Origin: Escherichia coli
Lineage (GTDB): Bacteria; Pseudomonadota; Gammaproteobacteria; Enterobacterales; Enterobacteriaceae
Assembly (NCBI RefSeq): GCF_050320075.1
Contig: NZ_CP190018.1
DNA length: 64,000 nt
Strand: one strand, 5' to 3'
The notes under the pieces were generated by a model, which was given only the letters and a program-made list of their open reading frames with translations, was not told the DNA's origin and did no database searches. Each line of letters starts with the position of its first letter. Position 1 is the stretch's first letter. Below are positions 39,761 to 43,424 of this stretch, in pieces. A program made the translations under genes and the position numbers.

Positions 39761-40998
39761 AATGTAGCTGGCGCGAAGGCAATAAGATCCAGTTGCTGGA
39801 AAACGGCGAGCAATATTATCCCGCGGTGTTTAAGGCGATTGGCGAGGCACAAGAACGCATCATTCTTGAAACGTTTATCTGGTTTGAGGATGACGTCGGC
39901 AAACAACTGCATGCGGCACTACTGGCAGCAGCGCAACGCGGGGTAAAAGCGGAAGTCTTACTTGATGGCTACGGTTCGCCGGATCTCAGCGATGAGTTTG
40001 TCAATGAACTGACGGCCGCTGGCGTGGTGTTCCGCTACTACGATCCCCGCCCTCGCCTTTTTGGTATGCGCACCAATGTGTTTCGCCGGATGCATCGCAA
40101 AATTGTGGTGATCGACGCGCATATCGCCTTTATTGGCGGGCTGAATTACTCCGCCGAGCATATGTCCAGCTACGGTCCAGAGGCTAAACAGGATTACGCG
40201 GTGCGCCTTGAAGGGCCGATTGTCGAAGATATTCTGCAATTTGAACTGGAAAACCTGCCAGGACAGAGCGCGGCACGACGCTGGTGGCGACGTCATCACA
40301 AAGCGGAAGAGAACCGCCAGCCGGGAGAAGCGCAGGTATTGCTGGTCTGGCGCGATAACGAAGAACATCGCGATGATATTGAACGTCACTATCTGAAAAT
40401 GCTCACTCAGGCACGGCGGGAAGTGATTATCGCCAACGCCTACTTCTTCCCCGGCTATCGATTTTTACACGCCTTGCGTAAAGCGGCACGGCGCGGGGTG
40501 CGGATCAAACTGATCATTCAGGGCGAACCGGATATGCCGATTGTCAGAGTCGGCGCGCGCTTGCTGTATAACTATCTGGTTAAAGGCGGCGTTCAGGTTT
40601 TTGAGTATCGCCGCCGCCCGCTCCACGGCAAAGTGGCGTTGATGGACGATCACTGGGCGACGGTAGGGTCCAGTAATCTCGATCCGCTCAGTTTGTCACT
40701 GAATCTCGAAGCAAATGTCATCATCCACGATCGTCATTTTAACCAGACGCTGCGCGATAATCTGAACGGCATTATCGCCGCAGACTGCCAGCAGGTGGAT
40801 GAAACCATGCTGCCGAAACGCACCTGGTGGAATCTGACCAAAAGCGTGCTGGCCTTCCACTTTTTACGCCACTTCCCGGCGCTGGTCGGCTGGCTTCCGG
40901 CACACACACCACGTCTGGCGCAGGTTGACCCGCCCGCTCAGCCGACAATGGAAACGCAGGATCGGGTAGAAACTGAAAACACGGGGGTAAAACCCTGA
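39757..40998 (+). CDS. clsB: Cardiolipin synthase B ClsB (YbhO), PLD family
   Basis: 413 aa; two HxK(x)4D motifs ([16 protein letters not shown]). Confidence 0.9.
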
Positions 40999-41954
40999 TG
41001 AGTAAATCACACCCACGCTGGCGCTTAGCAAAGAAGATCCTCACCTGGCTGTTTTTTATCGCGGTGATAGTGTTGCTGGTGGTCTACGCCAAAAAGGTGG
41101 ACTGGGAAGAGGTCTGGAAGGTCATCCGCGACTACAATCGCGTTGCGTTGCTCAGTGCGGTCGGGCTGGTGGTCGTCAGTTATCTGATTTACGGCTGCTA
41201 TGATCTGCTCGCCCGCTTTTACTGCGGTCACAAACTGGCGAAGCGCCAGGTGATGCTGGTGTCGTTTATCTGCTACGCCTTCAACCTGACGCTCAGTACC
41301 TGGGTCGGCGGCATTGGTATGCGCTATCGTTTGTACTCCCGGCTAGGGTTACCGGGCAGCACTATTACGCGGATTTTCTCGCTCAGTATTACCACCAACT
41401 GGCTGGGCTATATTTTACTGGCAGGGATTATCTTTACCGCAGGCGTGGTGGAGTTGCCGGATCACTGGTATGTCGATCAAACCACGCTGCGTATTCTCGG
41501 CATTGGCTTATTGATGATTATCGCGGTTTATTTGTGGTTTTGCGCTTTCGCGAAGCACCGCCATATGACCATCAAAGGACAAAAGCTGGTGCTGCCTTCA
41601 TGGAAATTTGCCCTCGCCCAGATGCTGATTTCCAGCGTTAACTGGATGGTAATGGGGGCGATTATCTGGCTGTTACTTGGTCAAAGCGTGAACTATTTCT
41701 TTGTACTGGGCGTGTTACTGGTTAGTAGTATTGCTGGCGTCATCGTGCATATTCCGGCGGGGATTGGTGTGCTGGAAGCGGTATTTATCGCGCTACTGGC
41801 TGGGGAGCATACCTCGAAAGGGAGCATTATCGCCGCCCTGCTCGCTTATCGCGTCCTGTATTACTTTATCCCGCTGCTGCTGGCGCTGATCTGTTACCTG
41901 CTACTGGAAAGCCAGGCGAAGAAGCTACGAGCGAAAAATGAAGCGGCGATGTGA
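40998..41954 (+). CDS. ybhN: Inner membrane protein YbhN
   Basis: 318-aa polytopic membrane protein; overlaps clsB stop (operon). Confidence 0.85.
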   Translation: MSKSHPRWRLAKKILTWLFFIAVIVLLVVYAKKVDWEEVWKVIRDYNRVALLSAVGLVVVSYLIYGCYDLLARFYCGHKLAKRQVMLVSFICYAFNLTLSTWVGGIGMRYRLYSRLGLPGSTITRIFSLSITTNWLGYILLAGIIFTAGVVELPDHWYVDQTTLRILGIGLLMIIAVYLWFCAFAKHRHMTIKGQKLVLPSWKFALAQMLISSVNWMVMGAIIWLLLGQSVNYFFVLGVLLVSSIAGVIVHIPAGIGVLEAVFIALLAGEHTSKGSIIAALLAYRVLYYFIPLLLALICYLLLESQAKKLRAKNEAAM

Positions 41955-41989
41955 AGTTTAGTTAAGTTCTTTAGTATGTGCATTTACGA

Positions 41990-42406
41990 CTAATGAAAAA
42001 AACGCGTATGCCTTTGCCAGACAAGCGTTATAGCTATCGCGGCAAGTATCCCAAAGAAGCCGATAAAATAGTAATAGAGTGTTAATGCACCTGTAAAAGC
42101 GCAACGAACCGGACTCCACAACTCTTCGCTATGGCATTTTCCTGCCAGTTCAAGGAGCTTATTTCGTCCATGCGAGATAATGCCTGACCATAACACTATC
42201 ATTAAGCAACTTATTACCCAAACGGGTCGTTCACTCATTAATGCGGCATCCATGATGATCACCAGGGCCAGCTCTGCGGTTGCCACCATACCCAAAGCGG
42301 TAATGAGCCATATACCGTTTAATATCCTGGCCTCGTGCTGAAAATCTAATTTATTGCTGTTTTGCGAGTATGATTCCATTCTTTTAGTTGTCCTTAGAAA
42401 AAACAT
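41990..42406 (-). CDS. Small inner-membrane protein at the ybhM position (129-138 aa)
   Basis: ORF track; 3-4 hydrophobic segments; identity with K-12 YbhM not confirmed (size differs from my recollection). Confidence 0.5.
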   Translation of the reverse strand: MFFLRTTKRMESYSQNSNKLDFQHEARILNGIWLITALGMVATAELALVIIMDAALMSERPVWVISCLMIVLWSGIISHGRNKLLELAGKCHSEELWSPVRCAFTGALTLYYYFIGFFGILAAIAITLVWQRHTRFFH

Positions 42407-42539
42407 TAATATTCACCATCAATAAATTTAAAACCACGCATACAAAATATTTTTGTATTTATGGATACGGAAAACACTTCCGCTCGGCCATAAGGCATAT
42501 TTTATACCTGGTACTTGTTAAGTGTCGTTTTTAGTAAGA

Positions 42540-42568
42540 AAAAAATCCCGACACATGGCCGGGATATT
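42540..42568 (-). terminator. Rho-independent terminator after ybhL
   Basis: On - strand: atcccggccatgtgtcgggat followed by ttttttt. Confidence 0.7.
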
Positions 42569-42583
42569 GATGGTGAAAAAGAA

Positions 42584-43288
42584 TTAACGGCGGTTGCCGA
42601 AGATCCGCAACAACATCAGGAACAAGTTGATGAAGTCCAGATACAAGGTTAACGCGCCAAGAATGGAATATTTGCGCAGGTTCGACGTGTCGCGGGTATC
42701 AATCTGCTCACCCATATTTTTCAATTTCTGAGTGTCATACGCCGTCAATCCGACAAAGACAATCACGCCGATGTAGGTAACTGCCCACATCAATGCTTCG
42801 CTTTTCAGCCAGAAGTTGACCAGCGATGCCAGCACAATGCCGATTAACGCCATAAACAGCATATTGCCAAAGCCGCTTAGATCGCGCTTCGTGGTGTAAC
42901 CGTACAGGCTCATTGCGCCAAACATCCCGGCAGTAACGACGAAAGTACTGGCGATAGAAGCAGCGGTATAGACAATGAAAATACTGGAAAGCGTAAGACC
43001 CGTCAGCGCCGAATAAAGCATAAAGAGCATCGTCGTTACACCTGCGCTCAGCTTTTGAATCATCGCTGATAACACAATAACCAATGCTAATTGCGCGATG
43101 ATCAGACCGATTAAAAAGACACGGTTAGTGAACAACAGCTCCATCACGGCCGCGGAATTAGCCGCATACCAGGCAACAAATGCGGTCAGCAACAAGCCAA
43201 CGGTCATCCAGCCATAGACTTGCGCCATATAAGTTTGCAAGCCAGCCCGGGGTTGTACAATTGAATCAGAACGTGGGAATCTGTCCAT
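42584..43288 (-). CDS. ybhL: BAX inhibitor-1 family inner membrane protein YbhL
   Basis: 234 aa from ATG 43288 (MDRFPRSDSIVQPRAGLQTYMAQVYGWM...), 7 TM. Confidence 0.85.
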   Translation of the reverse strand: MDRFPRSDSIVQPRAGLQTYMAQVYGWMTVGLLLTAFVAWYAANSAAVMELLFTNRVFLIGLIIAQLALVIVLSAMIQKLSAGVTTMLFMLYSALTGLTLSSIFIVYTAASIASTFVVTAGMFGAMSLYGYTTKRDLSGFGNMLFMALIGIVLASLVNFWLKSEALMWAVTYIGVIVFVGLTAYDTQKLKNMGEQIDTRDTSNLRKYSILGALTLYLDFINLFLMLLRIFGNRR

Positions 43289-43424
43289 GACGATCTCCTG
43301 AAGATATAAGGAATATCTTAAGGATACTGCAAAATGATGAGGCTGTGCATCGACGCAGCGTAAACGCATGTACTGAGCGGTGAAATTGCCGGACGCAGCG
43401 GTGCCTTATCCGGCTAACAAAAAA

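Follow-up and report, generated by a model that had tools for sequence, protein, structure and literature searches.

Within a 64,000-nucleotide stretch of Escherichia coli DNA (contig NZ_CP190018.1; hereafter the window), the gene ybhM is present as a short allele between ybhN and ybhL. We read it as a derived deletion allele that has lost 324 bp between 11-bp repeats and is most likely a non-functional, drifting remnant of a dispensable gene, a reading to which we give a probability of about 0.85. The odd short open reading frame (ORF) seen at this locus is thus no new gene but a naturally occurring deletion allele that is common in the species, an instance of the routine decay of a dispensable gene.

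The short ybhM allele and its junction

The neighbourhood in the window corresponds to the clsB-ybhN-ybhM-ybhL-moaE region of E. coli, in inverted orientation relative to K-12. The ybhN gene ends at 41954 and the stop codon of ybhL lies from 42584, leaving a gap of 629 bp (41955-42583) with one sizeable ORF, on the minus strand at 41990-42406, which encodes 138 residues when read from its ATG. A first-pass annotation of the window had described a gap of about 630 bp with an ORF of 129-138 residues, much shorter than the K-12 protein, which it put at over 200 residues; these points hold, as K-12-type ybhM (locus L001; RefSeq WP_000446911.1) spans 714 bp and encodes 237 residues, 108 codons more than the 129-residue reading of the window gene.

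The shorter reading is the one adopted here, with ybhM at 41990-42379 on the minus strand (129 codons and a stop), on the basis of the ORF list, the RefSeq coding sequence of strain CFSAN061763, alignments to K-12-type ybhM and Pfam. Positions 41700-42900 of the window are 100% identical to CFSAN061763, in which the RefSeq gene begins at the K-12 start (window 42379; MESYSQ), is 390 bp or 129 residues long, and yields a product identical to that of the window (WP_000446922.1, 'Bax inhibitor 1 family protein'). The 138-residue reading owes its nine additional codons (42380-42406, minus strand), which are specific to this allele, solely to a single-nucleotide polymorphism in the window that changes ATA to ATG at 42404-42406. 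K-12-type sequences and that of strain CB6837 have ATA there, position 42404 being one of the differences between the window and CB6837, and this ATG is unlikely to be the true start of ybhM.

When the interval was aligned to the K-12 ybhL-ybhN interval, as the first-pass annotation had suggested, the inequality in ORF length resolved at both the DNA and the protein level into a single gap, exactly 324 bp (108 codons) long, corresponding to residues 36-143 of K-12 YbhM (all of helices 2-4, with part of helix 1 and part of helix 5). The segment of L001 that falls in this gap is 100% identical to those of DH5alpha and C600. Across the 390 retained bases there are 16 differences from K-12 ybhM, and each of the two retained parts is in frame, at about 96% identity to it. 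The allele occupies the same position between ybhL and ybhN as K-12 ybhM, which encodes a Bax inhibitor-1/YccA family protein, and shares its strand, native start, stop, promoter and flanks, the upstream spacer (204 bp) and the one towards ybhN (35 bp) both being collinear with K-12. On these alignments, the window gene is a K-12-type ybhM with an in-frame internal deletion. The earlier suggestion of a truncated or replaced gene was thus right as to shortening, but the gene is not a replacement, and it has not been truncated at either end.

Each of the seven long alleles examined has a copy of an imperfect 11-bp direct repeat, CAGGGYTGGCC, on either side of the segment missing from the window. 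The left copy reads CAGG[G/A]CT[G/A]GCC (CAGGGCTGGCC in four alleles, CAGGACTGGCC in two and CAGGACTAGCC in K-12) and the right copy reads CAGGGTTGGCC in all seven, the two lying exactly 324 bp apart in the same reading frame and matching at 8-10 of 11 positions. Both copies encode Gly-Leu-Ala, and one falls in helix 1, the other in helix 5. Short alleles retain a single hybrid copy, which is CAGAGCTGGCC in the window (42266-42276, minus strand, identified by comparison of long and short alleles) and CAGGGCTGGCC in related short alleles; with the junction marked by a slash, those of short alleles read CAGGGCTGGCC/CTGG, CAGGACTGGCC/CTGG or CAGGGTTGGCC/CTGG. Deletions between short direct repeats, through replication slippage or short-homology recombination, are a classical source of spontaneous deletions in E. 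coli. The ybhM allele resembles these in having a repeat at each end of the segment in the undeleted form and one copy left behind, and differs from them in that its repeats are imperfect and its mechanism is inferred from the sequence. The 324 bp were probably lost through replication slippage, or through some other short-homology recombination between the repeats. As 324 is divisible by three and the repeats lie in the same frame, the loss leaves the reading frame open.

Distribution, protein consequence and selection

The deletion is common. Of 5426 complete E. coli genomes, 464 have the 60-bp junction of the window and another 105 have a second type of junction, CAGGACTGGCC/CTGG; double counting between the two junction searches is unlikely given the word lengths used. 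The deleted segment itself was found by blastn in 4809. Megablast recovered the segment in only 4156 genomes, since identity is down to about 91% in B2-type alleles. Roughly 10% of complete genomes carry the deletion and about 89% the segment. In a large protein collection, the exact window protein is present on at least 1000 contigs, and its cluster at 90% identity has 452 distinct members. The 129-residue proteins WP_000446924.1, WP_000446925.1 and WP_001522650.1 have the same 324-bp deletion as WP_000446922.1, with a small number of substitutions relative to it; E36 and D44 mark the window type, G36 and N44 the commoner short type. RefSeq labels these 129-residue alleles either 'Bax inhibitor 1 family protein' or 'hypothetical protein'. 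The allele is therefore common and already catalogued in RefSeq, and it presents nothing mechanistically new; a full-text literature search for 'ybhM' returned incidental mentions only and no description of the allele. For annotation, the RefSeq-labelled 129-residue product is actually a remnant with three of seven helices, and pangenome pipelines may count it as a gene family distinct from ybhM.

Short alleles carry at least three junction sequences or junction-flank haplotypes. Their ybhN flanks are divergent (0-31 differences in 550 nucleotides), while their ybhL flanks show 0-2 differences among window-type alleles and up to 7 against the second junction type. This pattern is compatible either with a single deletion that spread by recombination, in tracts ending at the heterology boundary, or with the same deletion recurring on different haplotypes. 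The substitution L31M (T to A, 13 nucleotides before the junction) was considered as a marker of a single origin and rejected, as short alleles with Leu31 and a different junction exist (P0072 and P0074; L015-L018).

An AlphaFold model of long YbhM (predicted local distance difference test score, pLDDT, 81.6; predicted template modelling score, pTM, 0.79), taken together with hydropathy, gives seven helices, at residues 3-43, 54-76, 79-100, 103-127, 134-154, 159-192 and 198-235. The deletion takes out the end of helix 1, helices 2-4 in full and the initial ten residues of helix 5, joining what is left of helix 1 to what is left of helix 5. The model of the short protein has three helices packed with low confidence (pLDDT 69.9, pTM 0.44), as opposed to the seven transmembrane helices of the YetJ-type fold. 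The product would keep the N-terminus, a hybrid helix 1/5, helix 6 and helix 7, from which the seven-helix fold could no longer form, and it is most likely non-functional as a protein of the Bax inhibitor-1 (BI-1) type.

Pfam family PF01027 (Bax1-I) is shared by YbhM with YbhL, YccA, Bacillus subtilis YetJ (PDB 4PGR) and human TMBIM6/BI-1; the window allele is left with helices 1/5, 6 and 7 only. The seven-helix model of long YbhM aligns with YetJ, and YbhL is only 23-24% identical to YbhM. By sequence search, phmmer with long YbhM alone gave no match among PDB sequences, a small YbhM/YbhL profile reached YetJ weakly (E = 0.002), and no NCBIfam model matches either the long or the short allele. 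Two aspartates of YetJ, D171 and D195, reportedly form a pH sensor, in work attributed to Chang et al. 2014. In the alignment, aspartate occurs at both positions, in helices 6 and 7, in YbhL (AYDTQKL, LYLDFINLF) and in YetJ (LYDLNQI, LYLDFINLF), whereas long and short YbhM alike have Gly (SHGRNKL) and Tyr (LYYYFIGFF) in their place. The di-aspartyl pair is thus absent from both forms, and because it is absent from both, its loss is a property of the paralogue and did not result from the deletion. By these residues, YbhM is a divergent, atypical member of the family and may function differently from a canonical BI-1 protein.

On our reading, the allele persists as a neutral or nearly neutral polymorphism, on several haplotype backgrounds, in a gene that E. 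coli often loses. The rival that survives best, which we nevertheless regard as unlikely, is that the 129-residue product is a functional three-helix membrane protein under selection, or that loss of full-length YbhM is itself adaptive. Several observations weigh against a drifting remnant and on the side of this rival. The ORF is open in nearly all carriers sampled, the exact protein being as widespread as described above, and the promoter, ribosome-binding region and start codon are intact. Four helices, an even number, have been lost, and in the model helices 6 and 7 could keep their topology and membrane orientation. Variants found only in short alleles lean synonymous (10 synonymous and 6 non-synonymous, after removal of two junction-construction artefacts), which could reflect continued purifying selection on the short product; the window and CB6837 differ by 10 synonymous and 2 non-synonymous changes. 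Furthermore, one 3' haplotype is confined to short-allele genomes (among the best 60 of 163 matches at 99% identity or more), and the deletion stands on the three or more haplotypes noted above. Loss of function, it must also be said, is our inference.

Other observations weigh against this rival. The synonymous excess is explicable by substitutions that preceded the deletion or by recombination with long alleles, with which many variable sites are shared. A low pairwise ratio of non-synonymous to synonymous substitution rates (dN/dS) among short alleles, about 0.10 when pooled, was likewise considered as evidence of purifying selection and rejected, because variable sites are shared with long alleles, the region is a recombination mosaic, and substitutions from before the deletion are inseparable from later ones. 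Beside the junction, every change is non-synonymous, namely G36E and N44D in the window allele, which place charged residues in the hybrid helix, and A38V in strain 7/2. Broken derivatives of the short allele exist, one frameshifted (ETEC1738) and one a 121-residue nonsense form found on 248 contigs. The low model confidence (the pTM given above) also speaks against this rival, and ybhM is often broken across E. coli by insertion sequence (IS) elements and by other deletions; IS5 interrupts it in HB101/RR1, and IS1 lies inside it in other strains. Stated most specifically, with the short allele giving a stable inner-membrane mini-protein of three helices that the intact ybhM promoter expresses and selection maintains, or with ybhM inactivation repeatedly favoured, this rival seems a shade less probable again. 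Were inactivation favoured, it would explain both the same deletion on several haplotypes and the frequency of other deletions and IS hits.

Direction of change and alternative origins

That the window allele is derived is indicated first by its relation to the family profile. K-12-type YbhM scores 75.1 bits against Bax1-I over profile positions 3-205 of 207 and passes the curated gathering score of 34.1 bits, whereas the window protein aligns with positions 127-205 only and scores 30.4 bits (129 residues) or 30.1 bits (138 residues), below the cut-off for whole-protein membership. The window gene is in this respect a remnant of a Bax1-I family member and not a complete member. The 108 residues that it lacks align with helices 2-5 of YbhL and with Bax1-I profile positions, and the E. 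albertii orthologue of YbhM has 237 residues. The full profile match, the alignment along YbhL and the length of the E. albertii orthologue show the long form of ybhM to be ancestral and the short form derived.

The opposite polarity, in which the additional 324 bp of K-12-type ybhM stem from an insertion or an internal duplication, has the length difference itself as the sole point in its favour, and it is refuted by the alignment of the extra residues with YbhL and Bax1-I together with the E. albertii orthologue; moreover, the segment is old, being present in some 89% of E. coli genomes with nucleotide divergence of up to 9%, and we consider this reading extremely improbable. Replacement by an unrelated or horizontally acquired gene for a small membrane protein, or an assembly artefact, is equally far-fetched, being refuted by the retained parts, which are in place and in frame at about 96% identity to K-12 ybhM, and by the recurrence of the same junction in 464 independently assembled complete genomes.

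Variability of ybhM and neighbouring features

The decay of a dispensable gene proposed here concerns a gene that, on sequence comparison, is unusually divergent within E. coli and fast-evolving. The pooled ratio of non-synonymous to synonymous polymorphism (pN/pS) for ybhM is about 0.26, and synonymous divergence (dS) over the whole gene is about 0.25 between K-12 and B2 alleles. The deleted segment is about 91% identical between K-12 and B2/sequence type 131 (ST131) strains, while ybhL differs between K-12 and ST131/SF-166 strains at 12-14 of 705 nucleotides, and at 42 in strain 3150. In E. coli, ybhM is accordingly a member of the Bax inhibitor-1 family that is under weak constraint and often broken.

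Other shortened forms of ybhM were also observed. In-frame deletions give proteins of 208 residues (P0027, YLFLIS/MLAG, minus 29 residues), 195 residues (P0031, AIIIV/NAAL, minus 42) and 216 residues (P0017, YVAI/AGVIY, minus 21), each deletion lying between tiny repeated motifs, and frameshifted or truncated forms are represented by P0055, P0057 and P0066. Some short-allele strains, such as strain 7/2 (L006, 1603-2061), have an IS200C transposase gene in the spacer between ybhL and ybhM. In some genomes, a third gene of the Bax inhibitor-1 family lies between ybhM and ybhL, as in E. coli AR_0128 (L013, 1697-2401), where it encodes 234 residues (WP_001299026.1). Its product is only 25-28% identical to YbhL and YbhM, and the gene is present in 750 of the 5426 complete genomes and absent from the window spacer (42380-42583). 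The N-terminus of AR_0128 YbhM differs (MNSRSANNITNDFQHE) and resembles that of E. albertii YbhM (MKSYPSKNITNDFQHE), and because of this resemblance the three-gene arrangement may be the older one.

Upstream of ybhM, the window keeps a promoter-like site, ACGACA...TATAAA, at 42499-42528 on the minus strand, identified by a consensus scan and a published promoter catalogue. That catalogue lists ACGACA-16-TATAAA, within the ybhL-ybhM spacer, as a constitutive promoter for RpoD and gives it an H-NS mark (PMC3946193). The spacer also holds, after ybhL, a hairpin resembling an intrinsic terminator (42545-42565, minus strand), with an 8-pair stem containing 5 G-C pairs, followed by a T-run, TTTTTTCTTA. 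At 42150-42600, which covers the 5' end of ybhM together with the spacer towards ybhL, GC content drops to 36-40%, as against about 50-58% in the flanking genes. An Rfam scan of 41800-42800 gave nothing credible; its top match, PsrR1, scored 19 bits where the gathering score is 42. Two plus-strand ORFs inside the region, at 42180-42341 and 42388-42534, were taken as antisense frame noise.

The paralogue ybhL is intact at 42584-43288 on the minus strand and encodes a Bax inhibitor-1/YccA protein of 234 residues, with a Pfam Bax1-I score of 211 bits over profile positions 1-207 and support from RefSeq in CFSAN061763. The mechanical ORF list extends it to 42584-43369 (261 residues from an upstream ATG), whereas RefSeq and Pfam favour the 234-residue form beginning at 43288. 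On the other side, the convergent neighbour ybhN lies at 40998-41954 on the plus strand and, according to the ORF list, Pfam and RefSeq, encodes a membrane protein with a lysylphosphatidylglycerol synthase domain.
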